NCBI GenBank assembly: GCA_050952085.1
Contig: JBMNKH010000003.1
Coordinates: 38,626 to 102,625 of the forward strand
DNA from: Bacillota bacterium
GTDB lineage: Bacteria; Bacillota; Sulfobacillia; Fermentithermobacillales; Fermentithermobacillaceae
DNA length: 64,000 bases
Direction: 5' to 3'
Position 1 is the first letter of the stretch, and each line of letters begins with the position of its first letter. The notes beneath the pieces were generated by a model, which was given only the letters and a program-made list of their open reading frames with translations, did no database searches and was not told the DNA's origin. Shown piece by piece: positions 14,932 to 57,637 of the stretch. Both the position numbers and the translations under genes were made by a program.

Positions 14932-15107
14932 GACTATGTCACCTGCAACCCCCGCCACCCTGGCACGGGACTTGAAACCCTGGAGGAACGGAGTATCTGG
15001 CCCAGGAAGTTCAGCCCATAGGCATGTTCCCTTACATGAGTCGTGAGGAGTGCGTTGCCTGTTGGCAGTCTTTAATTGGCGCTTTGGGGCGAATTGGAGG
15101 GATAACA

Positions 15108-16646: not shown

Positions 16647-16779
16647 CGGAATAGACTGTGATCGGCGACTTAACGCAATTTGGGGAGTTTATAGGGTGTT
16701 ACCCTCGATAAATGTTCATGGGAACATTGCTAGTTAATCATTTTATAGGGAGGAAACAACCATGCTCTCAAGCGCAAAG

Positions 16780-17070
16780 CCTTAAACTCCATAAAATATT
16801 AACCAATTATTTAAAAAATATCCGTAGGCCTGAAGTTAAAACAGATAGATTTTTTACTACTAATAAAACAGGCAGGGTAAGCAATAATTATGTCAATGGA
16901 TGCATTAGGAATGCGGTAATTAAGCTGGATTGGGACAAAGAGATAAGTGCCCATAATCTTCGACATTCTTTTAGCAGTAACTTACTTGAAAAGGAGAGCA
17001 TCCGTTGTAAGTATTCAAAAGTTGCTAGGTCATTCAAACTTGGCGGTAACAACCGATTTATACGGCAAAA
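16780..17070 (+). pseudogene. Tyrosine recombinase/integrase C-terminal remnant
   Basis: ISAHNLRHSFSSNLLEK, then ASVVSIQKLLGHSNLAVTT in a shifted frame; N-terminus absent. Confidence 0.85.
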
Positions 17071-17088
17071 GCAACAAAAATTATTGAG

Positions 17089-17787: not shown

Positions 17788-17901
17788 AGCACCATTTTTG
17801 TTACCATCATTGCAAAACCTTTGTATATTATATACTAATGTAACATATATTTTTTCGGCTTATTGTAGATGATATAGTAGTAAGTTATAAGCATAAATAA
17901 G

Positions 17902-17945
17902 AAGCCCTCAAACCCTTGTGTTTACGGGGGTTACAGGGCTTTTTC
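17902..17945. terminator. Hairpin terminator at the island edge
   Basis: AAGCCCT..AACCC...GGGTT..AGGGCTT followed by a T run, between convergent genes. Confidence 0.55.
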
Positions 17946-17986
17946 ATTCCACATTTTAGCAGGATTTTGTGTGCTATTAAGTGCGC

Positions 17987-22934: not shown

Positions 22935-23248
22935 TGTCCGCCGACATGGAAACTGACCATTGCCTCTGATGCCTCCAATGTCTATCGACATAGGATGTGC
23001 TTTCAGGTGTATCGGTTTATACAGAGCAAGAGGAACTGTGCCAGTAAGCGAAAGGCGATTGAAAGAAAATAGCTGGGTCGTGCAGGGAATCAGGGTTCCC
23101 GACGACAATAAAGAATGTATGGAAAGAACGTAATGCATGGAAGAAGCCTTTGGAAGGCATGTTCAAAGCATGCCAAAGCATGTTTAGACAAGGCCAAGCA
23201 GTGACAACACCCACAAGAAATGATGGCGGTCAAAGGAGGAAATGGGCA

Positions 23249-28778: not shown

Positions 28779-30803
28779 TTACCACACAAGCGGCAATCGT
28801 TTCTCAGTTCTGATATCAAAGATGCCCTGGTCTGTAAGGACAAACTTCCTTGGATGGCATGTCAAGTATGCAAAAGTCAGTACGTCCACAGGCTTTGCTT
28901 CCATGGTCTTTGCAAGGTCGGGAGGTATTTGGGACATTCCAGCGTTTACTGCAGTTCCTTCTCCTTCAGGCCTTGCCCCCGAAGGTGCCTCTCCATTGAC
29001 GCTTATGCGCAAACCCGCGGCTGCTTTCTCCACTGCTCTGCTTAGTTCAGCAACTTCCTCAGGAGGTGCGTCAGACATGAGGCCGAATATTGGCAGCGGC
29101 AGTTCAGCGAGGACCCGGCCGTTCTCCACCACTACGATCCCGCCTTGGATTGCAGCTACCCGGTTGACGGCCACGGCCATGTCGTGGTCATTAGCCCCTA
29201 CGACTGAGATATTGTGGCTGTCGTGCAGAACGCTCATGGCAATAGCCCCGCGCTCAAAACCCCAGCGCCAGAAACCAAGCCCGATGTTGCCTGTTCCCTG
29301 GTGCCTTTCCACAATCGCCACCTTATTGATCCCGGTTCCTAGTGCAGGTTCCACAAATCCATTACGGACAGGCAGTTTGCATGTTATAGCCTCTAAATCG
29401 TCTGAGAAGTAGAAAGGAGGTATTACCAGGGCGTGAACCCAGACACGTTCTTGACCGCGGCATGTGATTTCGACCGGTGCAGGCACCTTGAAATCATCAG
29501 CCGTAACCTTCCTTCGCAGCTTGACAGTATCCAGTGCGTAACTTGGGGCTAGCCTGTTTCCTTGGTCCGGGACTTCAAGCGAAACTAAGAGTTTGCCGTT
29601 GCGGGCGACTTCTTTGCCGCTGGCGAATACACGCTCAATGGCAACCTTTTCAAGGTCGCTGATAACCAGGATATCGGCATACCTGCCTGGTGCAATCCCG
29701 CCGATATCACGATCAAGACGCCAGTGGCGCGCGTTGTTGATGGTTGCCATCTGATACGCCCTGACAGGGGGGACGCCGAGTTCAATAGCCAAGCGGACCT
29801 CATGGTCAAGGCTACCGAGTTCCAGCAGTTTCTCTACAGGCCTGTCATCTACCGCCAGGCCTATCCGGCTCCAGTCGACCTGGCTTTCCAGCAGTTTCTT
29901 GATAGTATTGGCCTCCCGTTCTGCCTTGAGCTGGATAGTAAATCCTTGCCTAAGCATTTCCAGGGCGTTTTCAGGGGTGTTGGGGCTATGGGTGGACTGG
30001 ATTCCGGCTGAGGCGTATGCAGCCAACCGGTTGCCTGTGAATCCGCCGTGGCCTTCGATTGGCTGTCCTGCTGAAATCGCTTCCTTGACTAAACTCCAGG
30101 TCCGGGCATCATTGCCGAAAATGCGTGGTGGGTCCATCATTTCGCCAAGGCCGGTGACCCTGGGCCACTCCAGAGCCTGTTTGAACTCTTTGCCGCCGAT
30201 GTATCCGCCTGTGGTTTCAACGTTGGTAGGTGGTGTGGCTGAAGGCACCTGGACGTACACTTTCTGCGGCAGCCCCTGGGTGTTTTCGAGGAAGTACCTG
30301 ATTGCGTCGAGCCCGCCTGGTGAGCACGCTTCATGGGGGTCTTCCACAAGCGCAGTCAGGCCCCTGGCAAGGGTGATTTCAGCGTGCCGCCACGGTGCCA
30401 ACCTGGAACTTTCGATATGGTAATGGGCGTCTACGAAGCCGGGTGTGAGGTAGGCGCCTTCTACGTCAATTATTTCAGTATCAGGCCCTATGCATGCATT
30501 TGCATCGCCTACCAGGGCAATTCTTTCGCCTGCGATGGCGATGTCCATGTCTTCCAGTATTTCACCTGTATATACGTTGACCAGCTTGCCGCCTCTGATG
30601 ACCAGATCCGCCAGTTGTTTTCCCAGGGCCACTTGAACAAGGCGCTGCCTTAGGCGGACCTCAGCCGCATAAGGGGACTCGGTTCCGGCCGGTGATGCAG
30701 GTGCTATAGTATGACCTGAGCCAGGAGCTGGAGCTGAGCCAGGCGCTAAGGAGCCACTTGACAGCTTCTTGGCTGTGTTTTCAGGATTCATGCTCATTGT
30801 CAT
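28779..30803 (-). CDS. ade: Adenine deaminase family amidohydrolase
   Basis: [55 protein letters not shown]. Confidence 0.85.
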
Positions 30804-31145: not shown

Positions 31146-33182
31146 ATGATAAGAAGAACGCTAGATTTGGTGAAAGAAGAGTTCAGGGCCCAGGAAGCAT
31201 TCAATGATGTCGCCAAGATAGCCTCCTTTCACAGGGTGCAGATAAGTCCTGGTATCAATGATGCAGGGCGTTTCATCCAGTCGTATCTCACGAAAGCAGG
31301 CATCCAATGCGAACTGTTGGAGTTCCCTGCCAAGAAGGGTATCACCTGGTGGTCTCAGGAGAGTTTCCAAGTATGGAAGGCAAATGATGCTCAACTTGTG
31401 CTCTTGGAAGACGGCAAGAGGGAGACTTTATGTGCATTCAGCGAAATCAAGACATCTCTGATTCAGCGGAGCGCACCCACGCCGCCTGAAGGTATCAAGA
31501 CCACCATGGTCTACGTGGAGAACGGGGAGGACCCCAAGTCGTATGAGGACATAGACGTTGAAGGTAAACTGGTGTTCTCAAGAGGTGACGTTGCGCGCAT
31601 TGCAAAGGTAGCAGTAGATCAGTTCGGCGCTGCCGGCATCGTGCTGGACAACATGCGGGAGTTTCCTCCTGTAAGAGACCGGTTTGATCTTCCTGACGCC
31701 CGCCAGTATCAAGCCTTCTGGCCTATAGATGGCAGCACGCATAAGGCTCGTGGTTTCATGGTGAGCCCGAGGCAAGGCGAAGCTCTCAGAAAGCGGTTTG
31801 CAAAGCAAAAAGAGCTTTCAGTATGGGCCATGGTTGATGCGGAGTTCTCCGACGGGGTCTGGGAGATTCCTACTGCTGTAATTCCAGGCGAATCCAACGA
31901 GGAGGTTGTGGCTGTAGCTCACCTTTGCCACCCTGAGCACTCTGCTAACGACAACGCTTCAGGCTGTGGTGCGCTGATGGAAGCAGCAAGAACCCTCTGG
32001 CAGCTCGTCAAAACAGGCAAACTAGACAAGCCAAAGAGATCCATCCGTTTCTTGTGGGTTCCGGAGATGACAGGGTCGTACGCATTCCTCGCTGCCAATG
32101 AAGACAAGTTGTCAAATATTGTGGCAGCTATCAACCTTGATATGGTAGGCGAGAATCAGGAACTCTGTGGCAGCACATTCATGGTGGAAAGGCCCATAAG
32201 TGCGCTTCCCGGGTTCGGCGGGGATCTAGCCTCTGCTATCCTCGGCCTCTTGACCAAGGAAGTCGGCAACCTGGCCGGAACCGGTTTGTACTCCACGTTC
32301 AGGTGGACTGTCGGCCCCTATTCAGGCGGGAGCGACCACAGCATCTGGGGAGATCCCAGCGTCGGGATCACGTGTCCCATGCTGATCCAGTGGCCCGACA
32401 AGTACTATCACACCAGTGAGGACACTATCGACAAGGTAGACCCACGCATGCTGAAGGTAGCAGGCGTGCTTACTGCAACTTACCTGTATACTGCAACTAC
32501 TGCGACACCTGGCGATACTGCGGTTATTGCAGGGGAGGCTGCAGCCCGGTTCCCAGGCGAGGCAGATGCCCAGCTGTCGGTTCTGGTAGACCAGGCCAAG
32601 GAGCAGCTCGGCAAGGCCAACGGTGAAGCAGAAGTCAACGAAGTACTTGCCAAAGCCCGGAGGGCCATTGAACTCAGGGCCGGTTTCCTTGCAGACCGGA
32701 AGAAACTGGACCTTTCCAGCCTCAGGAGACTCGTCCCTGATTCGCCCATGCTTTCAGACGCCATGAGTGAAGCCGGGTGCCTAATCGAGGAGGCAGGCAG
32801 GTTCCTCCTGGCAAAGGCTTTGAGAGAACTGGCAGTTCTGGCTGGCTTGGCTGATGTATCGGGATTACCGCCGGCATGGCAGCCGGAAGAAGGCGAGGCG
32901 TACAAGAGAGCTAAGAGCATTATTCCTAAGCGGGTCTTCCGTGGTCCCTTCTCAAGTACCGGCAAGGAAGTGCCGGCGGACTATGAGGAGCGGGTTAAGG
33001 CGCTCAGGGAGAAGTACGGCGAGAGCGCGCTGCCCTTGAACCGGTTTGAACTCTGGGCAGACGGAAAGAGGACCCTTCTCGACATCGCCTTGCTTATCGA
33101 AAGTGAAACCGGCTTCTCCAATTTGGACGCCATCGTGGATTATTATGACCTCCAGGTTGAGCGGGGCGTGTTTGAGGGGTAG
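31146..33182 (+). CDS. DUF4910 / M28-like aminopeptidase
   Basis: AHLCHP, ANDNASG, PEMTGS, NLDMVG, GSDH, YHTSEDT; PA-like insert. Confidence 0.85.
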   Translation: MIRRTLDLVKEEFRAQEAFNDVAKIASFHRVQISPGINDAGRFIQSYLTKAGIQCELLEFPAKKGITWWSQESFQVWKANDAQLVLLEDGKRETLCAFSEIKTSLIQRSAPTPPEGIKTTMVYVENGEDPKSYEDIDVEGKLVFSRGDVARIAKVAVDQFGAAGIVLDNMREFPPVRDRFDLPDARQYQAFWPIDGSTHKARGFMVSPRQGEALRKRFAKQKELSVWAMVDAEFSDGVWEIPTAVIPGESNEEVVAVAHLCHPEHSANDNASGCGALMEAARTLWQLVKTGKLDKPKRSIRFLWVPEMTGSYAFLAANEDKLSNIVAAINLDMVGENQELCGSTFMVERPISALPGFGGDLASAILGLLTKEVGNLAGTGLYSTFRWTVGPYSGGSDHSIWGDPSVGITCPMLIQWPDKYYHTSEDTIDKVDPRMLKVAGVLTATYLYTATTATPGDTAVIAGEAAARFPGEADAQLSVLVDQAKEQLGKANGEAEVNEVLAKARRAIELRAGFLADRKKLDLSSLRRLVPDSPMLSDAMSEAGCLIEEAGRFLLAKALRELAVLAGLADVSGLPPAWQPEEGEAYKRAKSIIPKRVFRGPFSSTGKEVPADYEERVKALREKYGESALPLNRFELWADGKRTLLDIALLIESETGFSNLDAIVDYYDLQVERGVFEG

Positions 33183-39283: not shown

Positions 39284-39514
39284 GATAACAACCTCCTTGT
39301 GAATTGGCACTCCATGAACTCGGACCGGTACAAGCCTCAGAGGCTTCAATTCTGTCATGAGATCCGTCTTCAGCCGCCGGCGGCTGGTAGGGTCGTTGGC
39401 TGCTAGATAGACATTGACGGCCTGGGACAAGTATTCGCCGGGAGCGTTTACAAACCTGCCAAGACCTATCACTGCGGTGCTTTACCGAATCTAAGCCCGT
39501 GTAGGTAAGTTGAT

Positions 39515-39591
39515 TTGTGCATGTTGCTCAACATGAGTAGGGTTGTTTGTTCCTTCTAACCATGTCCCAACCGACCGCGCCGACTTAGAAT
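39515..39591 (+). promoter_or_regulatory. Putative PucR/CdaR-type tandem operator plus -10
   Basis: TTGTGCATGTTGCTCAA near-palindrome, second TTGT box 32 bp on, TAGAAT at 39586. Confidence 0.45.
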
Positions 39592-39889
39592 GTATTCGGG
39601 GAGTGTCAATGTTTTCAGGATTGTTCTAACAGCGAGGAGGTGTATATCAACCAAACGATCCTGTGGAACGTGGGGCCACAATCCAGGTCGTTGCCGGCTG
39701 TGGGATAACTTCCCCAGTAGACTAAGGAGATTAGAGTGCAGCTCAACTTGGAGCACCATTCCCAGAGCCAAATGCAGAACGACATGAACCTTGACTACGC
39801 TCGGGTCTTCTCTGTTGCAGTATGCAAGCCTAATCACTCTATAGTATCAGCCTCGTTGAAATGAGAAGCAAATGAAAACAACCATAGTA

Positions 39890-40206
39890 TGGGATAGCCA
39901 AGACGTACCCGAAGTACATTCAGCCAAGCCCAAGCATATCAAGAGCAAGAATCAAGAACACCTAGAGACGAGCGCAGCATATCAAGAACAGAATCCAAGA
40001 ATACCAAGGACTAAGCTACAGCATATCAAAGGCAAAACCAAACATATCAAAGAACAAAGCCGAGCCTACAAACGGCATGCCCAGAGCAGGTCTAAAGCAA
40101 ATCAAAAGCACGCTTTCAAACCACACCCGAACGTACCCAAACATGCCAACAGGAGGGTCAGCAACAGGCAGATCAACAACAGGCAGATCAACAACAGGGA
40201 AGTCAA
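39890..40206 (+). repeat. A/C-rich low-complexity tract; CATATCAA repeats and a 15-bp tandem repeat (x4, 40147-40206)
   Basis: CAACAGG at 40147, 40162, 40177 and 40192. Confidence 0.75.
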
Positions 40207-40246
40207 CACCGGTTTCGTTTCAACCAGACCGTAAGGAGGGATAATC

Positions 40247-41026
40247 ATGGTTCCCCGGGACGGGGGTATATTCGCTTTCTTTGCGTTCCTTGCTTTGGCT
40301 GCAGTGCTTTTCTGGTGCTACCGGAAAGTCAAGGGGGGCTACAAACCGTACTTCAGACAAATACCGGCGCTCAAAGGGTTGGAAGAGGCCATCGGCAGAG
40401 CCGCGGAGATGGGACGGCCGGTCCACTTCACCCCGGGTTCAGACGGGTTCGACTCGGGCACTGCAGGTATGACTCTGGCAGCGACGATTTGCTTGGCTCA
40501 CATAGCCAAACTCTGTGCTCAATATGACGTACGTCTTTTGGTGTCAAACCGGCGTCCGGCTGTTCAACCTCTAACAGAGGAGATTGTCAGACAAGCATTC
40601 TTGGCTGAGGGCAAGCTTGAGAATTTCCGACCGACGGATATTCGGTTCTTCTCTGATGACCAGTTCGCGTATGCCTCCGGTGTTGTGGGTGTGATCAGCG
40701 GTGAGCAGACAGCTTCCAATATTATGCTGGGTGGTTTTTACGCCGAATCCTTGATGTTTGCAGAAGCCGGTGCCACTTACGGCAATATCCAGATAGCAGG
40801 TACGGCAAGCACGGCCCAGATTCCGTTCTTTGTCACCACATGTGACTACGTGTTGATCGGAGAGGAACTGTTCGCTGCTGCAGCCGTTCTCTCAGTGGAT
40901 CCCGCACAAGTTAGCACTCTGATGATGCAAGACATAATCCGTATTGCCCTCGTGTGCCTGATCGCAATAGGTGCACTTGCTGCAACATTTGGCTCAGATG
41001 TCATCAGACAGTTGATTCTCAAGTGA
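40247..41026 (+). CDS. DUF6754-like membrane protein (cassette 1, subunit A)
   Basis: IPALKGLEEAIGRAAEMGRPVHF, QIPFFVTTCDYVLIGEELFAA; AAGGAGG SD; paralog at 54649. Confidence 0.85.
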   Translation: MVPRDGGIFAFFAFLALAAVLFWCYRKVKGGYKPYFRQIPALKGLEEAIGRAAEMGRPVHFTPGSDGFDSGTAGMTLAATICLAHIAKLCAQYDVRLLVSNRRPAVQPLTEEIVRQAFLAEGKLENFRPTDIRFFSDDQFAYASGVVGVISGEQTASNIMLGGFYAESLMFAEAGATYGNIQIAGTASTAQIPFFVTTCDYVLIGEELFAAAAVLSVDPAQVSTLMMQDIIRIALVCLIAIGALAATFGSDVIRQLILK

Positions 41027-41035
41027 TGTTAGGGG

Positions 41036-41662
41036 GTGCATGATTTGAACACGCTCATCGCGATCGTCGGCCTGGTAGCGGGCGTTCCCATATTACTGTC
41101 ATCATTTGCTGAAATACCTGTCATCAGCGACCTGGCTCAAGAGTTCCAACGATGGGGAATCATTCTGGCCGGGTTTTCAACCTTTCTTGGTGTACTCAAC
41201 CTTACCTTCGTCAATGCAAATGCTCTGCGTCGCAGAAAGCAGACAGGTCAAGTCATAGAGCCTGTCGTAGTTCTCGTCATGTTGTGGGGCCTTGTTCTTA
41301 CCGGAGTGTTTTTCGGGCAAACGCACCCTGCGTACGATTTTGTGTTTGAGAATGTGCTCAAGCCCCTTAGCGCATCAGGCTTCTCCATGTTGGCGTTTTT
41401 CATTGCTTCCGCTGCTTATAGAGCATTTCGTGTGAGAAACGTGGATGCAGCCATTCTATTGGTATGTGGATGTCTGGTTATGCTGGCCAATATTCCTTTC
41501 GGTGAACTGATCTGGAGCGATCTCCCGGTTGTGTCCGATTGGATCATGCGCATCATCAACGGGTCTGCGATGAAAGGTATTGTAATCGGCGGGGCAATAG
41601 GAGCGATTGCAACGGCGTTGAAGGTGCTCGTTGGAGTCGAACGTTCACACTTGCGCGGCTGA
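41036..41662 (+). CDS. Uncharacterised multi-TM protein (cassette 1, subunit B)
   Basis: FFIASAAYRAFRVRN, GVERSHL; paralog at 55477. Confidence 0.85.
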   Translation: MHDLNTLIAIVGLVAGVPILLSSFAEIPVISDLAQEFQRWGIILAGFSTFLGVLNLTFVNANALRRRKQTGQVIEPVVVLVMLWGLVLTGVFFGQTHPAYDFVFENVLKPLSASGFSMLAFFIASAAYRAFRVRNVDAAILLVCGCLVMLANIPFGELIWSDLPVVSDWIMRIINGSAMKGIVIGGAIGAIATALKVLVGVERSHLRG

Positions 41663-41686
41663 GATTACGCAAAGGAGAGGTGAAAC

Positions 41687-42515
41687 ATGTCATTCTTTGA
41701 AAGACTTCAGTCGATCCCGCGTATTACAATATACGTCTTGGTCGTAATCGTGCTGTCAATACCACTCATATTTCCGATTAGTCTTCCCTTACAGGTAGTA
41801 CCCATGACTCAAGCCGTGTATGATGCGATTGAAGCCCTCGAGCCGGGTTCGATATTCATGTTGTCCACTGACTGGGAAGCATCTACCGAGGCTGAGTCGG
41901 GACCCCAGACAGAGGCCATTGTAAGACACGTCTTGGCAAGAGACCTGAAGCTAATCATTGTGGGACTCTGGCCTCAGGGCAACTCGGCTACGCAGCAGAT
42001 TGTTGAGCGAATAGCTTCCGAAATGGGAAAAACTTACGGCGTAGACTGGGTCAACCTGGGGTACAAGCCGGGCGGCGAAGTTGTTCTAGCGTCTTTGGCT
42101 GCTAACCTGCGGGAACTCTACAGTTCAGACGTTAGGGGGACCCCGCTGGACCAGCTTGAGATATGCAAAGGACTCACCAGCGCTAAAGATGTGGACTTGG
42201 TTTGCTCGGTTTCTTGGGGCGACCCGGGCCATCTCACATGGGTAAAAATGGTTCAGACTCAGGTGGGGGTTCCGGTGGTGGCCGCGGTAACTGCAGTGTC
42301 TCTTCCGGGTTGTGCACCCTACCTCCAGTCGGGCCAGCTCTTGGGTGTAGTAGGTGGCCTGGGCGGAGCAGCCCAATATGAGAAGCTTGTGGGCTATGCC
42401 GGAAAGGCCGCCGCCGGAATGGGCGCGCAGAGCTTTCGGCCACATATTGGTTCTAACCCTGGTTGTGCTGGGCAACATCGGATATCTTGCCACCAGAAAG
42501 TCGAAGGAGGGTTAA
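41687..42515 (+). CDS. Uncharacterised protein with two TM anchors and a soluble domain (cassette 1, subunit C); 1-bp frameshift near 42435
   Basis: VNLGY.PGGE, DVRG, SGQ, GG..GAAQYE; removing one T restores AQSFGHILVLTLVVLGNIGY, matching the paralog. Confidence 0.82.
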
Positions 42516-42518
42516 ACT

Positions 42519-43112
42519 ATGAAATTGGGAATCACTGTTGCAGCCCTTCTTAACCTTGGTTTGTGGAGCTTCCTCATAGGCGATAACCGGGTGTTCAGGT
42601 TGGTTCAGAGCCTCTATGTGGGTGCTGCGGTAGCCCATACATTTGTACTGGCTTACAGAAACACCCTCATACCCAACCTTTGGCAACCCTTTACGGAAGG
42701 CAAATACGTATTGGTTATTCCCATGGTGCTGGGCCTGGCCCTGTTTACCAGGGTGTCCAAGAAATACTCTCATATTTCCAAGATACCCATGACCTTTATC
42801 GTGGGCGTCGGAGCTGCCCTGGCTATCCGCGGTGCCCTGTTGTCTGACTTGGCCACCCAGGTTGCGTCGGTCATGGTATCTTTGAACACCGTAGATAACA
42901 TCGTCATGCTGATAGGAACTCTATGCACACTCATCTATTTCACCTTTACGATCAAGCCGACACCCGTGACCGGCACCATGTCTTACATCGGCAGGTACTT
43001 CATGATGGCGGCCTTCGGAGCTGCATTCGGAAATACGGTCATGGCCAGGATGTCCCTGCTCATAGGCAGACTTCAGTTCCTGTGGGGCGATTGGCTGGGC
43101 ATCATCAAGTAG
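42519..43112 (+). CDS. Uncharacterised multi-TM protein (cassette 1, subunit D)
   Basis: DNRVFR..Q...VG, GRYFMMAAFGAAFGN.V..R, GDWLGI; paralog at 57014. Confidence 0.85.
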   Translation: MKLGITVAALLNLGLWSFLIGDNRVFRLVQSLYVGAAVAHTFVLAYRNTLIPNLWQPFTEGKYVLVIPMVLGLALFTRVSKKYSHISKIPMTFIVGVGAALAIRGALLSDLATQVASVMVSLNTVDNIVMLIGTLCTLIYFTFTIKPTPVTGTMSYIGRYFMMAAFGAAFGNTVMARMSLLIGRLQFLWGDWLGIIK

Positions 43113-43131
43113 ACGCTCGGAGGTTGGTGAT

Positions 43132-44289
43132 ATGTCAAGAAGAGACGAGTGGCGGAAGAAGGCTCTGGCCTCCATCGATGCCGCGAGGGAAGACCTATTG
43201 GCGATTTCCCATGACATCTTCGAGTACGCAGAGCTTGCATTTGAGGAATTCCGTTCAGCGGAAAGGCTCCGGAGTTTCCTCAGAGAGCGGGGCTTCAGGA
43301 TCAGCGATGTTGAGGGATTGCCCACGGCGTTCATAGCTGAGAAGGGGACAGGATCGCCGGTAGTGGCTTTCATGGCTGAGTACGATGCCCTTCCGGAAAT
43401 AGGGCATGCCTGCGGGCACAACATTATAGCTGCGGCCGCCGTAGGAGCAGGCTTAGGTGTTGCTTCGTTCATCGAGGAGTCCGGCGGCACTGTCAGGGTA
43501 ATCGGCACTCCTGCCGAGGAGGGCGGAGGCGGGAAGATTATCATGGTAGACAAAGGCGTGTTCGACGATGTGGATGCTGCCATGATAGTGCATCCGTCGG
43601 GAGCCTACATGGCAGACGACCATTCCTATGCCATTCAGGGCTTTGACATCCAGTTCATAGGCAAAGCGGCTCATGCGGCCTCCGGCCCTCAGCACGGCAT
43701 AAATGCACTTGATGCGGCCGTGGAATTTCTCGTCAGCCTGAATGCTTTCCGCGAGCACATGACAGATGACGGCCGGATTCACGCCATCATCACCCACGGG
43801 GGCAGTGCGGTCAACGTAATCCCTGAACGCAGTGAGCTAAAGGTTGCAGTGAGAGCTACCACTAAGGAATATCTGGATGAGCTTATCCAGCAGGTCGAGC
43901 GCAAGGTCAAGGGTGCTTCGATCTCCGCGGGGTGTCAGTATTCCATAAAGCCTCGAGGGCTCCTTTGCAGGGAGATTAACGTGAACCGCGAGCTCTCAAG
44001 GTTGTTTGAAGAAAACTTCAAGTCCCTGGGGATACCCGTTGCTCCCAGAGGGGATTCCAAGGGCTCTACGGATGTCGGCAATGTGAGCCATGTTGTTCCC
44101 ACTATCCAAGCGTATGTGGGAATCGGCGCCGATGTTTGCCACACCGTCGAGTTCCGGGAGGCCAGCATATCTCAGAAGGGAGATGAGGCGGTCATCGATG
44201 GCGCCAAGGTGATGGCGCTGACCGCGGCGGATATCCTCTCAGATGAAACGGTGCTTGAAAGGATGCGCTCGTCGTTTAGGGGTGAGTGA
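43132..44289 (+). CDS. M20 family amidohydrolase (ACY1L2/AbgB-like)
   Basis: EYDAL, HACGHN, GTPAEEGGGGK, G.NALDA, GSTDVGNVS. Confidence 0.93.
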   Translation: MSRRDEWRKKALASIDAAREDLLAISHDIFEYAELAFEEFRSAERLRSFLRERGFRISDVEGLPTAFIAEKGTGSPVVAFMAEYDALPEIGHACGHNIIAAAAVGAGLGVASFIEESGGTVRVIGTPAEEGGGGKIIMVDKGVFDDVDAAMIVHPSGAYMADDHSYAIQGFDIQFIGKAAHAASGPQHGINALDAAVEFLVSLNAFREHMTDDGRIHAIITHGGSAVNVIPERSELKVAVRATTKEYLDELIQQVERKVKGASISAGCQYSIKPRGLLCREINVNRELSRLFEENFKSLGIPVAPRGDSKGSTDVGNVSHVVPTIQAYVGIGADVCHTVEFREASISQKGDEAVIDGAKVMALTAADILSDETVLERMRSSFRGE

Positions 44290-44679
44290 ATCCAGTCGGA
44301 TGCATGGATTTGGCTTATGGCCGGTACGATGAGTGCCAGGGGGATGCCGGCTGTCGGAAATCGGATGCGGTCTGGGAGCCGTGCCGGCGAGCGAGGCTTC
44401 CGCCAGCGATGAGGCGGAACGTCTACGTTCTGGGCCCTGCCTGCACATACCAGGTCCGGCATGTGCGCCTTTTGCCAGCGATCAGGTGGAAGACTAGACT
44501 GGGATCAGATGAAGACTAAACCGGGCAGTCATACAGATACAGGCCTAGTGCAAGTAGCGGGGCACCCGGGCTTGTCAATGCCACCGGGTGCCCGGCGAAT
44601 GTTGAGGCATGGGCGAGTCTTGCTAAACATGCAGGTTCCTAAGACAGAGTTCTGAGATACATTTCTCAGACATAAGAGC

Positions 44680-44940
44680 AGAGGCTGTAGGAATGGATGC
44701 TGTAATCGTAGAGGCTGCAGGAGTGGGTAGTAGGGGATGCAGGCCTGGAGGATGCATGTGTAGAGTGATACAGGATGCAAGAATAGCGGATGCAGGAGCA
44801 GAGGACCCGGGAGTAGAGGCAAAACTAAAGGATGCGGGAGCAGAGGACCCAGGAGTAGAGGCAGCAGAGGGTGCGGGAGCAGAGCTCTCGCGCGTAGAGG
44901 CATAGGGCACAGGAGCAAAGGGCACAGAAGTATAGAGGAT
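44680..44940 (+). repeat. G/A-rich low-complexity tract with GATGCAGG repeats and a 42-bp-period duplication
   Basis: GGATGCRGGAGCAGAGGACCCRGGAGTAGAGGCA at 44788 and 44830. Confidence 0.75.
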
Positions 44941-45022
44941 GAAGTCTGGCCTCTGTTGAAAGATGTCACAGAGCCAGAACCCAAGGCTAAGCAACGGGAA
45001 TATGCCGTACGAGGTGATCTGC

Positions 45023-46663
45023 TTGTTGACTGTGCGGCGAGCACTCAAGATCGGCGGGTTGGCAAAATCGAGGCTTGTGGCAGGTCATCAGGGGCTTGAT
45101 AATGAGATCCACTCAGTTGACGTGATAGAAGTGCCCGACATCAGGGATTGGATCAAGCCAAACGAGCTGGCGGTGACTTCCGGTTTTGCGGTGAAAGACA
45201 GCAGGCAAGCACAGGAACGTCTGGTCAGAGACCTGGCGGAGAACAAGGCTGCTGCCCTGGCTGTCAAGACAGGTCGCTATCTCGGTGATACCATACCCGA
45301 AGTGATGATAGCTGCGGCCAATGAGGCCGGTTTTCCCCTCATCGAGGTTCCCGCCGGCATCCCGTATACCGAAATTACCTTGCCGATAATATCAGCCATC
45401 TTGAACGAACGTGCATACAGATTTCAGTATGAATCCTACATCCGGGGAATGCTGCAGAAATGCGTCATAGAGAACAGGGGAATCGAGTCCCTTGCCAATA
45501 CCATAGCAGAGATAGTCGGAAGCCCGACTTGCATAGTCTCTCATGACGGACGTTTACTTGCTTCTTGCGGAAAGCATCTTGAGCATCGGAACATCAAGGT
45601 CCTACTGGAGCAAAGCAGAAAACAGTCTGGCCCGGCTACCGATGGGAGTCTGCCGGGAACCTGGTTTGAGGATCTGCTTTGCGTACCTGCCTGTGGCAAA
45701 GGGGGTATCTTAGGGTACCTGATCGTCGACCGTTCCAAGCAAGGCCCCTTGGACGTGTTCGAGGAGACAGCTCTTAGGGAAGCGGTAACGGTAGTAGTGC
45801 TGGAATTGACCAAACATCGTATAGTCCAGGAGGCTGAAACAACCCTAGAGCGGAGGCTTCTCGAATACAGCTTGACCCACCTCCAAGCCGATTTGCTGTT
45901 GCCGGACATACGGGACTTACCCGGATTCGTCTTCAGAGACCCGTACGCGGCCATCCTGGTGAAGCCCAGACAGCATGTACGCTTGGCTGCGGACTGGGGA
46001 AGATTGCTGACGGCAAGAAAGTGCCTGGAACTGGTGAAATGCGCTGAAAGGCCCTCGGTGGGCAGTTGGTTGCCCGTGTTCGTTGACAGAGAACGAGACG
46101 AGGTGATCATGGTTTGGTCCGGAATAGGAACGCCCGACAGTGACATGATAAGCGACCAATGTGTAGCAGAACTCCAACGTCTGCAGAGATGCCTGTGTCG
46201 CAATGCCGGCATTGAGATACTGCTGGGTGTAAGTAGGATCCATGTGGGAATCGACAGTTATGCAAGTGCTGCTGACGAGGCCAGGAAGGCGGCACGGATT
46301 GGAGACTCCTGCATTTTCACAGAGGGAGTGATGCTGGCTCAGGATGCAGCCATATATGAGTTCATCGACAATATTGACAGGGACACACAAGCACGATTTG
46401 CCGAGGACAATCTGAAACAACTCATAGGTCAGGACGGGAATCGTGAGCTTATCAAGACCCTGGCCGTCTTCTTGTACTGCGGCGGCCAGATTTCCCAGGC
46501 AGCCGAGAAACTGTTTATCCACAGAAATACACTCAACTATCGTTTGGACAAGATAAGTGCTCTCCTTGGTTGCGATGTGAGACATCCCAGGAACCGATCC
46601 AGGTTGGAGCTTGCGCTTGTTGCAGCTTGTCTTTCGGGCGTAATCCCGAGACAGGGCGATTGA
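45023..46663 (+). CDS. PucR/CdaR-family transcriptional regulator
   Basis: LTV..AL, VAG..GL, V.V.E.PD...W....EL..TSG; C-terminal HTH AAEKLFIHRNTL.YRL.KI; TTG after GAGGTGA. Confidence 0.93.
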   Translation: MLTVRRALKIGGLAKSRLVAGHQGLDNEIHSVDVIEVPDIRDWIKPNELAVTSGFAVKDSRQAQERLVRDLAENKAAALAVKTGRYLGDTIPEVMIAAANEAGFPLIEVPAGIPYTEITLPIISAILNERAYRFQYESYIRGMLQKCVIENRGIESLANTIAEIVGSPTCIVSHDGRLLASCGKHLEHRNIKVLLEQSRKQSGPATDGSLPGTWFEDLLCVPACGKGGILGYLIVDRSKQGPLDVFEETALREAVTVVVLELTKHRIVQEAETTLERRLLEYSLTHLQADLLLPDIRDLPGFVFRDPYAAILVKPRQHVRLAADWGRLLTARKCLELVKCAERPSVGSWLPVFVDRERDEVIMVWSGIGTPDSDMISDQCVAELQRLQRCLCRNAGIEILLGVSRIHVGIDSYASAADEARKAARIGDSCIFTEGVMLAQDAAIYEFIDNIDRDTQARFAEDNLKQLIGQDGNRELIKTLAVFLYCGGQISQAAEKLFIHRNTLNYRLDKISALLGCDVRHPRNRSRLELALVAACLSGVIPRQGD

Positions 46664-46666: not shown

Positions 46667-46742
46667 TTGTGCAACCTAACGGCCTTGGCGGGCATTTCTT
46701 GTGCGTCATACAGATAAAGCTGACTTGCCTTTGATCGACAAT
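46667..46742 (+). promoter_or_regulatory. Putative PucR/CdaR-type tandem operator plus -10
   Basis: TTGTGC boxes at 46667 and 46699 (32 bp apart), GACAAT at 46737. Confidence 0.45.
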
Positions 46743-46764
46743 GTGTTGGAGGAGGGAGCGGGTG

Positions 46765-47424
46765 TTGAGGAAAAACGCGACAGCCAAGATCGGGATTATC
46801 AGGGTCTTGACCACCGATGACGTACATCTTCTGAACATGCATGGCACGCTGATAGAAGCGCTATTCCCCAATTTGGATGTCGTATCTCGCTGTATTCCGG
46901 ATCATCCTAAAGGGGTGTATGACTCGGAAACCGAGGCCAGTGCCGGACCGCTGGTGGTCCGGCTGGCACGGGAGTTTGAGGCCGAAGACTGTTCAGCAGT
47001 AATCATCAGCTGCGCGTCAGATCCGGGACTGGATATGGCAAGAAAAAACGTAGGTATTCCTGTGATTGGAGCGGGTAAAGCAGCGGCCCTTATGGGGAGG
47101 GCCTTTGGACGGAAAGTCGGTGTGCTTGGCATAGGTGGTTCCGCCCCCAAACGGATGGAGAAAATCCTCGGAGACCTGCTGGTAGGCTACGCCAAGCCAG
47201 AAGGTCTGGAGAATACCACCAACCTTCTGACGGCTGAGAGCCAAAGGGCCGTGTTGGATGCAGGCTTGAAGCTGAAGCAGGCAGGAGCGGAAGTAATAGT
47301 CCTTGCGTGCACTGGGCTCTCAACAGCCGGAAGTGCAGCGCCTTTATCAAAGGCCACAGGGTTAAGAGTGGTTGACGCTGTCCAAGCCGCGGGTTTTCTG
47401 GCATATTATGCCGTTACTTTCTAG
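46765..47424 (+). CDS. Asp/Glu/hydantoin racemase family protein
   Basis: IG.IRVLT, ISCASDPG and LACTG two-Cys motifs; start near 46762-46765 after GGAGG. Confidence 0.88.
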   Translation: MRKNATAKIGIIRVLTTDDVHLLNMHGTLIEALFPNLDVVSRCIPDHPKGVYDSETEASAGPLVVRLAREFEAEDCSAVIISCASDPGLDMARKNVGIPVIGAGKAAALMGRAFGRKVGVLGIGGSAPKRMEKILGDLLVGYAKPEGLENTTNLLTAESQRAVLDAGLKLKQAGAEVIVLACTGLSTAGSAAPLSKATGLRVVDAVQAAGFLAYYAVTF

Positions 47425-47781: not shown

Positions 47782-48729
47782 TTGAGCTTCAAAGCTACTC
47801 TGAAAGCACTTGACTTGCTTGACGACTCCCGTGTAACCGGCGGCCAGGTTGCTGAATATCTGCAATCACTGGGGCTGGAAAACGTGCGGACTGAAAGGGT
47901 TCACGGTGAGAAGGGGTTTACAGATTTCCTTCAGGTTGCCATCCCCGGAGCCCAAGGGAAACTGGCAGGAGGCAAGGCGCCCACCCTTGGGATAATCGGC
48001 AGGCTTGGAGGTATCGGTGCGCGTCCTGAGATGATCGGGCTTGTCTCTGACGGGGACGGGGCAGTGGCGGCACTTGCGAGTGCCATAAAGCTGGCAGTCA
48101 TGGCGCAGCGGGGCGATCGACTTCACGGAGACGTAATGATTTCTACTCATGTCTGCCCCCATGCCCCCACGCAACCCCACGATCCCGTGCCCTTCATGGG
48201 TTCTCCTGTGGACATGAACACCATGAACAAGTATGAAGTGTCCGGGGAAATGGACGCAATACTGTCAATCGATACCACAAAGGGAAACCGGGTGATCAAC
48301 CACAAGGGTTTTGCCATCTCGCCTACGGTAAAACAGGGGTACATACTGCGTGTGAGTGACGACCTCCTGGACATCATGAGCATTACCACCGGCAAGCTTC
48401 CTGTGGTGTTTCCTATAACCACTCAGGATATCACCCCGTACGGAAACGGCATATATCATCTAAACAGCATCCTTCAACCGTGTACGGTCACCGCTGCACC
48501 GGTGGTGGGAGTTGCGATTACAACCGAAACCGCCGTGCCGGGATGTGCCACCGGGGCAAGTCACGTAGTGGACATTGAACAAGCGGTCCGTTTCAGCATC
48601 GAAGTGGCCAAGCAGTTCGGAGTGGGCAAGTGCAAGTTCTGCGATGAAGCAGAGTTCCAAAGGCTGGTGGAGTTGTACGGGCCAATGACCGTGCTCCAAA
48701 CCCATGGTTCGATGGCCGAAGACCTGTAG
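47782..48729 (+). CDS. DUF1177 family protein (putative metallopeptidase-like)
   Basis: GRLGGIGARP..IGLVSDGDGA, H.CP.APT.PH.PVPFM, SIDTTKGNR, QDITPYGN..YH.NSI.QP. Confidence 0.85.
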   Translation: MSFKATLKALDLLDDSRVTGGQVAEYLQSLGLENVRTERVHGEKGFTDFLQVAIPGAQGKLAGGKAPTLGIIGRLGGIGARPEMIGLVSDGDGAVAALASAIKLAVMAQRGDRLHGDVMISTHVCPHAPTQPHDPVPFMGSPVDMNTMNKYEVSGEMDAILSIDTTKGNRVINHKGFAISPTVKQGYILRVSDDLLDIMSITTGKLPVVFPITTQDITPYGNGIYHLNSILQPCTVTAAPVVGVAITTETAVPGCATGASHVVDIEQAVRFSIEVAKQFGVGKCKFCDEAEFQRLVELYGPMTVLQTHGSMAEDL

Positions 48730-54307: not shown

Positions 54308-54648
54308 CCGGCCCCTGGCCTGCCGCCCCTGCTGTGTTTTGCCATGCATGGAATAGTGCCGGACATATTCACATAAGATTCCACAGCAGACTTGAGCAAA
54401 CTCGTGGTAATCTTAGCAGGAATACTCGGAATTATGTTGAATGAAAAACCCTTAACTTATTGCATGGTTATTCTGGATGAAGCAAATGTCTGCAAAGGCG
54501 TATTTTGGTTATTTTGGAAAGGGGGTGCTCATACACTCTTTCATCCAGATTCTATGCTGATGATGGGAGGACTTTAGATAAATAGCAAGGAAGTTGACGG
54601 TTTTTTTATTTCCTTAGTGTCAGAAGTGACCGGGAGGTGAATGTAAGA

Positions 54649-55431
54649 ATGACAATCGCTCCAGGAAATGTGTTTGGTTTCTGGATGTTAATCGCGATAT
54701 CCGCGTTGGTCATCTATACCATAAGAGCTTCAGAGAGGGGTAAGTTCAAAGTAACAATCAGGCCCATAGCCGGGCTCGAAGCAATAGAGGAATGTGTGGG
54801 CCGGGCTACCGAAATGGGAAGGCCGGTACACTTCTCGCCAGGGCTTGGTGACATAGTCACCACCTCAGCTCCTGATACCCTTGCAGCTCTTCAGATTCTC
54901 TCGTATGTGACTGACGTGGCTGCGAAGTACGATGCCAGGTTTCTCGTTACCATCCGTATGCCCAACGTATACCCGCTGGCTACAGAAACAGTACGCCAGG
55001 GTTATATTGCGGCGAACAAAGCGGACTCGTACAGGGACAACATGGTAAGGTACGTTTCAAGCGACCAAGACGCGTATGCTGCAGGCGTTATCGGCCTCTT
55101 CCACCAGGAACAGGTCGCATCCAGCATCTTGGCCGGCCTCTACATGGGAGAAGCACTGCTGCTTGCTGAATCAGCCGCCAGGCTTGGAATCATGCAGGTG
55201 GCAATCACTGCATCGGTTATGCAGGTACCCTTCTTCGTAGCTGCTTGTGACTACACCGTAATCGGTGAGGAACTGTACGCAGCCGGAGCTTACCTTACAA
55301 ACGACAAGGGACGTCTCGGAGGTATAGCAGGACAAGACTATATCAAACTGATCGTGATCGGCATCATCCTGATTGGCACTTTGATGACGTCTGCCGGCAG
55401 TAATGCAATTCAAAGTCTACTTACGATGTAG
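54649..55431 (+). CDS. DUF6754-like membrane protein (cassette 2, subunit A)
   Basis: IRPIAGLEAIEECVGRATEMGRPVHF, QVPFFVAACDYTVIGEELYAA; GGAGGTG SD. Confidence 0.87.
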   Translation: MTIAPGNVFGFWMLIAISALVIYTIRASERGKFKVTIRPIAGLEAIEECVGRATEMGRPVHFSPGLGDIVTTSAPDTLAALQILSYVTDVAAKYDARFLVTIRMPNVYPLATETVRQGYIAANKADSYRDNMVRYVSSDQDAYAAGVIGLFHQEQVASSILAGLYMGEALLLAESAARLGIMQVAITASVMQVPFFVAACDYTVIGEELYAAGAYLTNDKGRLGGIAGQDYIKLIVIGIILIGTLMTSAGSNAIQSLLTM

Positions 55432-55476
55432 TTGGTCGTAGGCAGAAGACTCGCTTAATGGAAAGAAGGTGTAATA

Positions 55477-56139
55477 ATGCGGAAAGAAGTGCCATTGCTA
55501 ATTACTTTCGTGGTTGCGCTGATTGTGATGCTAAGCCAGGTTACAACCGGAAATATCCCTGGGCTAGGCGTTGCCATGCCTGACCTTTTTGAACGATATA
55601 TCAGCCCTTGGATGACAGTGGTTTCCGCTTTTTCACTCTGCCTGGCCTCTGTCAACCTGATAGTGGTGCATTCAAGGAACATATCGCGGAAGCAGTCCGA
55701 GTGGATTTACAGCCTTATCCTGCTAGGCACACTGGTAATCTACGGTGCCTGGTGTACTTACATCCAGATAAATCCGGACAACACGGCTGCAGCTTCCAAC
55801 TACTCGCTGATATATAACTACATCCTGTCGCCGCTCATGACAGGGCAGTGGGCTTGCTTGGCGTTCTACGTGGCCTCTGCGTCTTACCGGGCCTTCAGGG
55901 CGAGAAACCTTGAGGCAACGGTACTGCTGGCGTCGGCAATATTGGTGATGCTGGGCGCTACTCCTGTAGGAGGGGTGATTTGGAGCAAGTTCCCGGTTAT
56001 ACAACGGTGGCTAATCGACATACCGAACATGACGGGCCAGCGTGCCCTGCTGATAGGCGCTGCAGTGGGAAGCTTTGTTGCATGCCTGCGCACAATGCTT
56101 GGAATCGAGCGGGGACATCTCGGCATCGGCGGTTCTTAA
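55477..56139 (+). CDS. Uncharacterised multi-TM protein (cassette 2, subunit B)
   Basis: FYVASASYRAFRARN, GIERGHL. Confidence 0.87.
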   Translation: MRKEVPLLITFVVALIVMLSQVTTGNIPGLGVAMPDLFERYISPWMTVVSAFSLCLASVNLIVVHSRNISRKQSEWIYSLILLGTLVIYGAWCTYIQINPDNTAAASNYSLIYNYILSPLMTGQWACLAFYVASASYRAFRARNLEATVLLASAILVMLGATPVGGVIWSKFPVIQRWLIDIPNMTGQRALLIGAAVGSFVACLRTMLGIERGHLGIGGS

Positions 56140-56161
56140 TGGGGAAGGAGGTATCCGGAGC

Positions 56162-56998
56162 ATGAGTCTTATGGAAAGACTACAGAACGTTGATTCTAGA
56201 ATCATATATGTACTTCTGCTTATAGCTCTATCTCTGCCTCTGCTCCGTCCTATCGGGATTCCGCTGCAGACTGATCCGATGGTCCGGGCTGTTTACGACA
56301 TAATAGAGGGACTTGACCCGGAAAAAGACAGGGTGTTGTTGTCCATGGACTACAGCCCTGGCGCGGGATTGGATGCAGAAGTGTCTCCTGTGGCGGTGGT
56401 AGAGCACTTAGCGGAACGTGGTATTAAGTGGGTGGCCATATCCTTCGGCACGACAGACGGCCCCATGATGACAAACAGGATAATCGCAGATCTTGAGGCA
56501 CGGGGCTATGAGTATGGTAAGGACTTTGCCAACCTGGGATACATGGCGGGCGAGGAAAACGCTGTCCGCCTCTTTGCCCTGGACTGCCTCAGTGTGCCCA
56601 CTGACGTAAGGGGCAACAGGACGGATCAGCTGCCCGTGATGCAAGGGATAAAGACAATCAAGGATTTTGCCTTTGTAATGCAGTTTTCAATGGGTACACC
56701 TGAAATGTGGATCCGTCAGGTAGTAGACCCCATGGGGATAAAATTCGCTACGGGAACGGTTACAGTATCTGTCCCGTCTATCGTGCCCTATTTCAACTCG
56801 GGACAGGTGAAGGGCGTGATGGGAGGCGTATCTTCCGCAGCCCAGTATGAGCTTCTGTGCAACAAGCCGGGACGGGGCGCAGCCTTGATGGATGCCCAAT
56901 CCATGGGCCACTTGCTCATCATCCTGTTTATCGTTCTCGGCAATATCGGGTATTTCATGGTCAAGGACAAGAAAGATAACTTGGCTGCCGGGCAATAG
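56162..56998 (+). CDS. Uncharacterised protein with two TM anchors and a soluble domain (cassette 2, subunit C)
   Basis: MSLMERLQ, ANLGY.AGEE, DVRG, SGQ..G..GG..SAAQYE, AQSMGH..GNIGY; AAGGAGGT SD. Confidence 0.87.
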   Translation: MSLMERLQNVDSRIIYVLLLIALSLPLLRPIGIPLQTDPMVRAVYDIIEGLDPEKDRVLLSMDYSPGAGLDAEVSPVAVVEHLAERGIKWVAISFGTTDGPMMTNRIIADLEARGYEYGKDFANLGYMAGEENAVRLFALDCLSVPTDVRGNRTDQLPVMQGIKTIKDFAFVMQFSMGTPEMWIRQVVDPMGIKFATGTVTVSVPSIVPYFNSGQVKGVMGGVSSAAQYELLCNKPGRGAALMDAQSMGHLLIILFIVLGNIGYFMVKDKKDNLAAGQ

Positions 56999-57013
56999 CT
57001 GGGAGGTGAAAAG

Positions 57014-57637
57014 ATGCAGATTTCAACGAATATTTGGCAATGGATCTCTGTGATTTGTATATTCGGCATGTGGTCACTGCCACTGTACAAAGACAATCCC
57101 TTTTACCGGGTATGCCAGAACGTATTTGTTGGCTCGTGTGCGGGTCACGCTATCGGAATCGCTATCGGAAATATTGTGAACTACGGTTTCGAGCCCTTGT
57201 TTACCCAGAGCAAGATAGACCTCCTGATTCCGGTAATCTTAGGGCTTATGCTGTATACCCGCTTCTTCCCGGGAGTTGCCTGGTTGAGCCGTTGGCCTGT
57301 TGCTTTTCTGGTAGGTGTTGGCGTGGGGCAGACTATCTACGCCTCTTTGAGGTCACAGGTGATCAACCAGTCAATAGCAGCTATGACTAAGTTCCCCCAG
57401 CCGACCGTGGGAGCTACGATTAACGGGCTGGTATCCCTTATAGGATTGTTATCCATTCTCACTTACTTCCTTTTCACCGTCCCGCAGTCGGGTGTTGTCA
57501 GAGGTATGTCCAAGCTGGGCCGGTGGATGATGATGGTGACCTTCGGGGTCGGGTTCGGCAACGTTGTATCAGGACGTCTGTCTGTACTCTTGGGCGAGCT
57601 GCTCAAGATATTCGGCGACTGGTTGGGTATGATCTAG
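57014..57637 (+). CDS. Uncharacterised multi-TM protein (cassette 2, subunit D)
   Basis: DNPFYR..Q...VG, GRWMMMVTFG..FGN.V..R, GDWLGMI. Confidence 0.87.
   Translation: MQISTNIWQWISVICIFGMWSLPLYKDNPFYRVCQNVFVGSCAGHAIGIAIGNIVNYGFEPLFTQSKIDLLIPVILGLMLYTRFFPGVAWLSRWPVAFLVGVGVGQTIYASLRSQVINQSIAAMTKFPQPTVGATINGLVSLIGLLSILTYFLFTVPQSGVVRGMSKLGRWMMMVTFGVGFGNVVSGRLSVLLGELLKIFGDWLGMI

Follow-up and report, generated by a model that had tools for sequence, protein, structure and literature searches.

The question raised by this locus is what four closely packed membrane-protein genes, here called A, B, C and D, do for a bacterium that keeps them directly ahead of a hydrolase gene. They occupy positions 40,247 to 43,112 of a stretch of 64,000 nucleotides (nt) from a member of the Fermentithermobacillaceae (Bacillota; contig JBMNKH010000003.1 of assembly GCA_050952085.1), which at its full length is referred to below as the window. 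A preliminary description, made from the letters alone, had proposed an ATP-independent, ion-coupled importer for peptides or N-acyl amino acids. We tentatively favor a reading of A-B-C-D as the membrane core of a new uptake system that has several components and takes in nutrients derived from amino acids; we regard this as quite possible though short of probable. What could be observed directly is the existence of the module, its multiplication, its gene order, the topology of A and C, its co-occurrence with a pair of genes that includes an ATPase, and its catabolic neighbors.

The four-gene arrangement is far beyond chance, because 12 complete A-B-C-D cassettes of constant order, plus remnants, were found by tblastn in the 1.98-Mb genome to which the window belongs (96% complete; 13 matches to DUF6754, the family of A), and because the order is kept elsewhere. 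A scan of one genome per species returned 613 relatives of A, and the neighborhood figures given here come from the best 80 loci. The order could be tested for A genes with at least 2,400 nt downstream (n=79; 12 further A genes were not testable), and B, C and D follow A in that order in 74 of them, the five exceptions being L041, L061, L065, L084 and L098. Six loci carry tandem arrays of two or three cassettes. Judged by record title, the best 80 loci fall into about 15 phylum-level lineages: Bacillota (including Fermentithermobacillaceae and Symbiobacterium), Neomarinimicrobiota, Eisenbacteria, Zixibacteria, WOR-3, Latescibacterota, Ignavibacteria, Planctomycetota, Sumerlaeota, Coatesbacteria, Cloacimonadaceae, Lentisphaeria, Nitrospirota and others. 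In addition, C and D are naturally fused in at least two proteins of 598 amino acids (aa; P0326 and P0361). The cross-phylum order and these fusions bear out the earlier view that the four genes make up one hetero-oligomeric module. In a collection of 1.84 billion representatives, 2,962 clusters formed at 50% identity belong to the D family with E ≤ 0.001; at least five D variants (P0255, P0263, P0306, P0311 and P0353) carry an insertion of 100-280 aa between model positions ~125 and 127.

DUF6754 was found in 26 of the 301 genomes searched in the window's phylum, several of which have 12-15 candidate copies, whereas a search of 14 model organisms found no copy. Twelve further members of the window's family were searched as well, and 11 of them have D paralogues at E ≤ 1e-40. 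An orthologue of the window copy in the same genus (G429) is 80-83% identical and keeps the order A-B-C-D-M20-PucR up to the start of the racemase gene. Among the 12 paralogues of the genome the mean identity is 40.8% for A, 34.2% for C and 33.9% for B; that B and C are the most divergent and A the least is compatible with B and C recognizing the substrate and with A having a partner that all copies share. The remnants comprise an A fragment beside a truncated Amidohydro_3 gene and a GntR regulator (C4:12134-12406; other contigs of the genome are given as C3, C4 and so on), B and C fragments 5′ of an intact cassette (C3:370894-371921) and a lone D fragment (C3:377752-378108), and they point to ongoing gain and loss of cassettes.

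Two of the four subunits turned out to be bitopic proteins with large soluble domains and not polytopic ones. AlphaFold2 models of the A and C paralogues from locus L014, built on alignments of 97 and 84 sequences, respectively, reached a predicted local distance difference test score (pLDDT) of 94.1 for A and 96.3 for C, and in both models two membrane helices enclose a Rossmann-like sandwich built of six beta-alpha units. Between its N- and C-terminal helices, A has a Rossmann-like domain of ~200 aa, and C one of ~215 aa followed, after the second helix, by a cytoplasmic tail rich in lysine and arginine (K/R). Since both termini of C are K/R-rich, its domain faces the outside; in A, K/R residues come straight after the first helix, which places its domain inside and its N-terminus outside. 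The placement of the A domain in the cytoplasm is confirmed by 102 long natural forms of A, 455-1011 aa in length. Their A domain lies at the C-terminal end, starting at a median position of residue 261, behind an additional domain that in some is a PQQ-type beta-propeller (PQQ_2/BamB-like), and all three of the long forms inspected open with a signal-peptide-like segment. In diderm lineages the N-terminal extension of A measures 200-750 aa (P0122, P0131, P0150, P0160, P0163 and others), which implies a periplasmic domain fused to the module. B is polytopic, profile hydropathy and K/R counts over 81 sequences predicting ~6 helices and an inside location for its two termini, and D is likewise polytopic with about 5-6 predicted helices. 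In B (R123 and R126) and D (N26, E33, R92 and Q117), some of the conserved residues within or close to the membrane segments are charged or polar. A prediction of the A+B+C+D complex for the L014 paralogue, with A as the scored partner, gave 0.68, 0.65 and 0.73, falling to 0.00 and 0.00 with A replaced and giving 0.72 with C replaced; it yields no verdict and is not used as evidence either way.

The reading frame of subunit C needed correction. As assembled, C is a 288-aa open reading frame (41687-42553) whose last ~37 residues are non-homologous and overlap D. The frameshift is a one-base assembly artefact, since the C-terminal membrane helix that is conserved in 11 paralogues is found in the window in the +1 frame, since contigs from four of four other public runs (four studies; two DNA and two RNA libraries) have one base fewer, at 42433 in three and at 42437 in one, and since the same-genus orthologue encodes an intact 274-aa C followed after 3 nt by D. 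The two forms of C are synonymous alleles, and the window sequence mixes both and has one base too many. True C ends at 42515 and has 275 aa, in agreement with the length of about 275 aa given at the outset.

Sequence searches placed only A in a family, and that family is DUF6754, as the preliminary description had suggested. A matches its Pfam model PF20539 with 256.9 bits (E 2.2e-76, model positions 13-256 of 257), well clear of the gathering score of 27 bits. For B, C and D, neither Pfam nor NCBIfam contains a model that matches at E ≤ 0.01. Neither a Walker A (G-x4-GK[ST]) nor a CxxC motif occurs in A, B, C or D, and the cassette subunits have no conserved Cys or flavin motifs. With respect to ATP-binding cassette (ABC) systems, A-D have no match to ABC_tran and the next gene encodes the M20 hydrolase, and B, C and D match no BPD_transp_1-type permease or solute-binding family; the cassette is thus neither an ABC transporter nor an ABC importer of these types. 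No Pfam match to TRAP, TTT, MFS or APC carriers was obtained at E ≤ 0.01, B and D having been compared by sequence searches only. Profiles of A, B, C, D, E375 and the GlmL-like protein (the last two are described below) found nothing better than E 0.007 among PDB sequences, and all 30 ESM Atlas hits each for B and D were unnamed clusters. By structure, the C model had six Foldseek hits in the PDB at E ≤ 0.001, all generic alpha/beta proteins with a template-modelling score of at most 0.37, and the A model had none at that threshold. Internal pseudo-symmetry was not detected by hhalign between B and D (probability 2.4%) or between A and C (2.9%); A and C nonetheless share the pattern of helix, six beta-alpha units and helix. 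A relation of B and D to RnfA/E (PF02508) received no Pfam match and hhalign probabilities of 0.2% (B) and 0.5% (D) against 25 sequences from relatives. The literature searched, whose scope did not extend to supplements, held no mention of DUF6754, PF20539 or PF13941. These searches uphold the earlier statement that no Walker or redox-cofactor motif and no ABC, TRAP or MFS relation is detectable, and no subunit matched a known transporter or solved structure. No subunit belongs to a characterized family, and the soluble domains are only of generic fold. In our judgment the module falls outside all kinds of transport system known so far, with a remote likeness of B and D to a known carrier fold being possible.

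The case for uptake comes from the genes beside the cassettes. An amide- or amino-acid-catabolic enzyme stands in an operon-like position beside 8 of the 12 cassettes of this genome, if co-directional genes are counted up to a distance of 254 nt from D or 42 nt from A. Three cassettes adjoin an Amidohydro_3 gene; others adjoin two DUF885 genes in a row with Amidohydro_1, a gene with a class-A-like beta-lactamase fold, a DPP-IV/S9 peptidase, an M20 hydrolase (the window copy), a hut row (urocanase, histidine ammonia-lyase, M20, formiminotransferase and cyclodeaminase), or M20 with L-serine dehydratase and, upstream, gamma-glutamyltranspeptidase. None of 13 flanking enzymes inspected by eye has a signal-peptide-like N-terminus. 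Enzymes without signal peptides work inside the cell, so their substrates must enter it, and the association of eight cassettes with such enzymes, a hut operon among them, therefore supports an importer. The M20 protein of the window likewise lacks a signal peptide, and among the cytoplasmic enzymes it is probably the one that would act first on an imported substrate. Taken together, divergent copies beside leaderless catabolic enzymes, with one outward- and one inward-facing domain, are best explained as substrate-specific uptake. The link to peptide, amide and amino-acid catabolism suspected from the window alone is thus sustained by gene context. Amide or peptide hydrolases also flank some cassettes of other genomes, among them secreted M6 proteases with a secretion tail, which follow D in three Marinimicrobia loci.

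A further set of genes travels with the module. The 643 neighboring open reading frames of the 80 loci were clustered and the families on the same strand counted: E375 (about 375 aa) was found in 22 of the 80 loci, a GlmL-like protein (about 612 aa, Pfam MutL) in 18, S124 (about 124 aa) in 15 and T174 (about 174 aa, two helices) in 9. The order is T174-A-B-C-D-GlmL-like-E375 in Bacillota and GlmL-like-E375-S124-A-B-C-D in FCB-type phyla, so that the linkage is kept despite the change of order, and in single-copy genomes of at least eight lineages the cassette and the GlmL-like/E375 pair are adjacent on the same strand. The GlmL-like protein matches MutL (PF13941) with 411 bits (E about 1e-123), stays below the NCBIfam cut-offs for GlmL (226.9 vs 475 bits) and glmL_fam (172.7 vs 204 bits), and has an additional C-terminal part of ~150 aa; its ASKHA motifs (phosphate-1, phosphate-2 and adenosine) show no variation among the 20 sequences compared. 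E375 has no membrane segment and shows weak RnfC_N and biotin-lipoyl barrel-sandwich matches, that to RnfC_N reaching E 1.3e-9 in one paralogue.

A and E375 also occur in nearly the same genomes, namely both in 24, A only in 2, E375 only in 1 and neither in 274 of the 301 genomes of the window's phylum, and both in 77, A only in 1, E375 only in 4 and neither in 39 of 121 genomes of the Marinimicrobia phylum, counts that overstate their statistical weight because the genomes are related and not independent. The two A-only cases among the 301 are a 78% complete genome and a weak partial hit, and all four E375-only hits among the 121 lie at contig ends. The window's own genome has four GlmL-like/E375 pairs. 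The row at C4:479592-487284 contains T174, GlmL-like, E375 (452 aa), S124, GlmL-like and E375 (373 aa), with C26 and S58 peptidase genes on its 5′ side. A divergent pair at C3:386873-392500 lies in one row with an FtsX permease, an ABC ATPase and a second FtsX permease, and its E375 (534 aa) has clearer biotin-lipoyl matches. So close an association with an ASKHA ATPase pair speaks against an ATP-independent carrier and suggests a shared cytoplasmic motor or coupling module, so that this part of the original proposal, ion coupling independent of ATP, is not supported.

From this gene context we infer transport, its direction, the substrate class, the roles of the subunits and the coupling to ATP, and the favored uptake system could work as follows. 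Its substrates would be amino acids, small peptides and N-acyl amino acids. The Rossmann-like domain of C outside the cell is a candidate substrate receptor, B and D with about 12 helices together could form the translocation path, and the inside Rossmann-like domain of A may couple this permease to a cytoplasmic module made up of the GlmL-like ASKHA ATPase and E375, with the small proteins T174 and S124. In this genome the C4 module (479.6-487.3 kb) might be common to 12 substrate-specific cassettes, and the window copy would feed the products of the M20 amidohydrolase, racemase and DUF1177 genes under PucR control. That A-D with the GlmL-like ATPase, E375, T174 and S124 constitute a new class of primary-active solute importers, with a motor of the actin/Hsp70 fold in place of an ABC ATPase and a modularity like that of energy-coupling factor (ECF) transporters, in which a dozen exchangeable, substrate-specific units of four membrane proteins would depend on a single common motor, is a more specific claim, and we consider it doubtful.

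The alternative closest to the original idea is a self-contained, ion-coupled secondary importer of several different subunits, with the GlmL-like/E375 pair an unrelated enzyme or regulator travelling along. A-D contain no nucleotide-binding motif, none of the 12 cassettes of this genome adjoins a GlmL-like/E375 pair, conserved charged and polar residues near the membrane segments of B and D are present, and catabolic neighbors would be equally expected for such a carrier. The near one-to-one co-occurrence and the adjacency in at least eight lineages are hard to explain on this account, however, and A, the most conserved subunit, would have no obvious role in a secondary carrier. We therefore hold it to be unlikely.

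Several observations besides the relatedness of the genomes weigh against uptake as the function of the module. Four of the 12 cassettes of this genome have uninformative neighbors, and in other genomes only 12 of 91 flanking open reading frames, at 10 of 57 loci, encode amide or peptide hydrolases. A cassette near urocanase was seen in none of five other multi-copy genomes. The genome has ABC importers of the Opp/Dpp type (10 SBP_bac_5 and 21 BPD_transp_1 matches), so that the assertion that the hydrolase cluster lacks a recognizable importer holds for the window and fails for the genome, in which no APC-type amino-acid permease was found. GlmL-like/E375 pairs can outnumber cassettes, as they do in G209 and G081, and these surplus pairs and the pair beside the FtsX-type ABC system mean that GlmL-like/E375 is not exclusive to the module. 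Of the matches to these two families, those at C5:22377-24748 and C7:5235-7606 have identical SBP_bac_5/BPD_transp_1 scores and are probably a duplicated region or a contig-end assembly duplicate, and at C3:303933-305137 an SBP_bac_5 gene is split in two by an in-frame TGA, either a broken binding protein or an assembly error.

The distribution in Marinimicrobia favors a different reading, in which the module is a membrane machine with a housekeeping task, for example in ion homeostasis, energy conservation or the biogenesis of the envelope, and its proximity to catabolic genes is secondary. Of the 121 genomes of that phylum, 78 carry the module, mostly with E-values near 1e-113 and in single copy in 76, and it is kept in genomes of 0.9-1.1 Mb; this, too, weighs against the uptake reading and would fit a housekeeping role. 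The same reading could account for the 61% mean column identity of the GlmL-like protein across phyla and for an architecture reminiscent of Rnf/Nqr, in which two six-helix subunits of 200 aa are accompanied by bitopic subunits directed to either side of the membrane and by an RnfC_N-like protein at the periphery. It does not account for 12 divergent copies (34-41% identity) with differing catabolic neighbors in 2 Mb, which is the pattern of substrate-specific units, nor for the absence from all 14 control model organisms and the presence in only 26 of the 301 genomes of the phylum sample. Moreover, the subunits have no cofactor motifs, B and D score below 1% against RnfA/E in hhalign, and the organism has an Rnf complex of its own. 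A housekeeping role thus appears quite unlikely to us.

The leaderless enzymes allow yet another interpretation, that of a device driven by the Hsp70/actin-fold ATPase that exports hydrolases without signal peptides or delivers them to the membrane. Gamma-glutamyltranspeptidase, DPP-IV, proteins of the class-A beta-lactamase fold and DUF885 proteins are usually extracytoplasmic in other bacteria, and all four stand beside cassettes without signal peptides; diderm forms of A, furthermore, carry periplasmic beta-propeller domains. Against this, the hut operon and L-serine dehydratase belong to cytoplasmic pathways, the neighbors in the window include a DNA-binding regulator and a racemase, and Pfam and NCBIfam yielded no match to a secretion-system family, which makes such a device very improbable. 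Least probable of all is a membrane sensor complex that reports extracellular amino acids or peptides to the neighboring genes, since, for all that C has an extracytoplasmic and A a cytoplasmic domain, with PucR in the same row, GntR by a cassette remnant and a chemoreceptor after D in locus L021, the subunits have no kinase, DNA-binding, cyclase or other output domain, most cassettes have no adjacent regulator, and two polytopic subunits would be superfluous.

The layout of the locus is summarized in Table 1. The coordinates, the strand and the tight packing of the four membrane-protein genes agree with the preliminary description, and Pfam likewise agrees with its naming of the genes on either side, an AstE/AspA-like deacylase (minus strand) and a 930-aa M14 protein on the 5′ side and the M20-to-DUF1177 row on the other. 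The spacers within the cassette are 9 nt (A-B), 24 nt (B-C) and 3 nt (C-D). As had been noted, the four ABC systems of the window have no solute-binding protein: family searches over the whole window found none, and the systems are of ABC-2 or other non-importer types.

Table 1. Coordinates of the A-B-C-D cassettes and of other genes discussed, numbered from the first letter of the window.
Feature	Coordinates	Strand	Description or basis
Subunit A	40247-41026	+	259 aa, DUF6754
Subunit B	41036-41662	+	208 aa
Subunit C	41687-42515	+	275 aa, discounting one extra assembled base at 42433-42437
Subunit D	42519-43112	+	197 aa
M20/TIGR01891-type amidohydrolase	43132-44289	+	Pfam and NCBIfam; 19 nt 3′ of D
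PucR-family regulator	44963-46663	+	Pfam; same gene row
Asp/Glu/hydantoin racemase-like protein	46741-47424	+	Pfam; same gene row
DUF1177	47782-48729	+	Pfam; same gene row
Second, paralogous A-B-C-D cassette	54637-57637	+	tblastn, open reading frames, Pfam, alignment with paralogues
Second cassette, A	54637-55431	+	DUF6754 (Pfam E 1.9e-78)
Second cassette, B	55477-56139	+	
Second cassette, C	within 56075-56998	+	
Second cassette, D	57014-57637	+	
Beta-lactamase-fold gene	15024-16646		PF00144; leaderless
Phage-integrase fragment	16712-17092		
Beta-lactamase-fold gene	17987-18814	-	class-A-like; leaderless

The two cassettes of the window are 35-42% identical to each other; the second sits 3′ of an ABC-2 exporter operon and has no catabolic enzyme after it on the same strand. 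Upstream of A, a 120-aa open reading frame rich in K, Q, N and H (39872-40234) was rejected as a gene and is probably not coding; in this region a related strain, represented by one RNA-library contig, has indels of 3, 1, 1 and 15 nt. The A-rich leader of ~690 nt before A (39556-40246) has no Rfam match, an Rfam search over 39300-45100 returned nothing at E ≤ 1, and promoter and terminator scans gave hits no more frequently than in shuffled sequence. The window as a whole is rich in amidohydrolases and peptidases (23150-24808, 28779-30803 and 31146-33182), and at 15024-18814 two leaderless beta-lactamase-fold genes lie around a phage-integrase fragment.

Across 14 studies of anaerobic digesters, biogas fermenters and bioreactors, 20 public runs contain the stretch. 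RNA libraries account for six of the runs and contain 0.39-0.71 of the sampled words. In two studies, contigs of RNA libraries extend over the cassette and connect B with C, C with D and D with M20; contigs are no proof of a single transcript, and RNA libraries may contain DNA.

The module is common and occurs in ~15 mostly uncultured lineages of digesters, sediments and the ocean, and its absence from the 14 model organisms would explain why it is unstudied. If the importer reading is true, it would fill a gap in the metabolic reconstructions made for Marinimicrobia and for anaerobes that degrade protein, and would be the first type of transporter tied to an ASKHA-fold ATPase; if the ASKHA-driven version is true, it would be the main route of amino-acid and peptide uptake in many uncultured protein-degrading phyla. 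The hut-linked paralogue offers histidine as a concrete candidate substrate. Even if its function differs, a membrane system of eight genes that genomes of 1 Mb retain and that others have multiplied 12-fold is a well-defined structural and genetic target.

Among known systems, receptor-anchored ABC importers resemble the module in having a receptor-like part outside (C), polytopic subunits (B and D), an inside component (A) and catabolic gene neighbors, but the module has no ABC_tran, BPD_transp_1 or solute-binding-protein match and no Walker A motif, and the model of C is a single Rossmann-like domain and not a bilobed binding protein. With Rnf and Na+-NQR it shares two six-helix subunits of ~200 aa, two bitopic subunits whose domains lie on opposite sides of the membrane, and a partner, E375, with a weak RnfC_N barrel-sandwich match; homology of B and D to Rnf was rejected, given the hhalign values above, the lack of a PF02508 match and the separate Rnf complex of the organism. 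The likeness to GlmL/MutL of glutamate mutase and ornithine degradation concerns the partner ATPase only, which matches MutL PF13941 and the GlmL models but stays under the cut-offs, has a longer C-terminus and is linked to membrane genes and not to B12 mutases. ECF transporters are organized as group I or group II, the latter sharing one energizing module. Like them, the present module has its parts in one row when single-copy and, when multi-copy, many membrane units with few cytoplasmic modules elsewhere. Unlike them, it has no ABC ATPase, its candidate motor being of the ASKHA fold, and no sequence relation to ECF proteins, and its specific unit consists of four proteins, two of them with large soluble domains, in place of one small S-component. 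By this comparison, the organization of the module is analogous to that of group II ECF transporters in logic and not in sequence.

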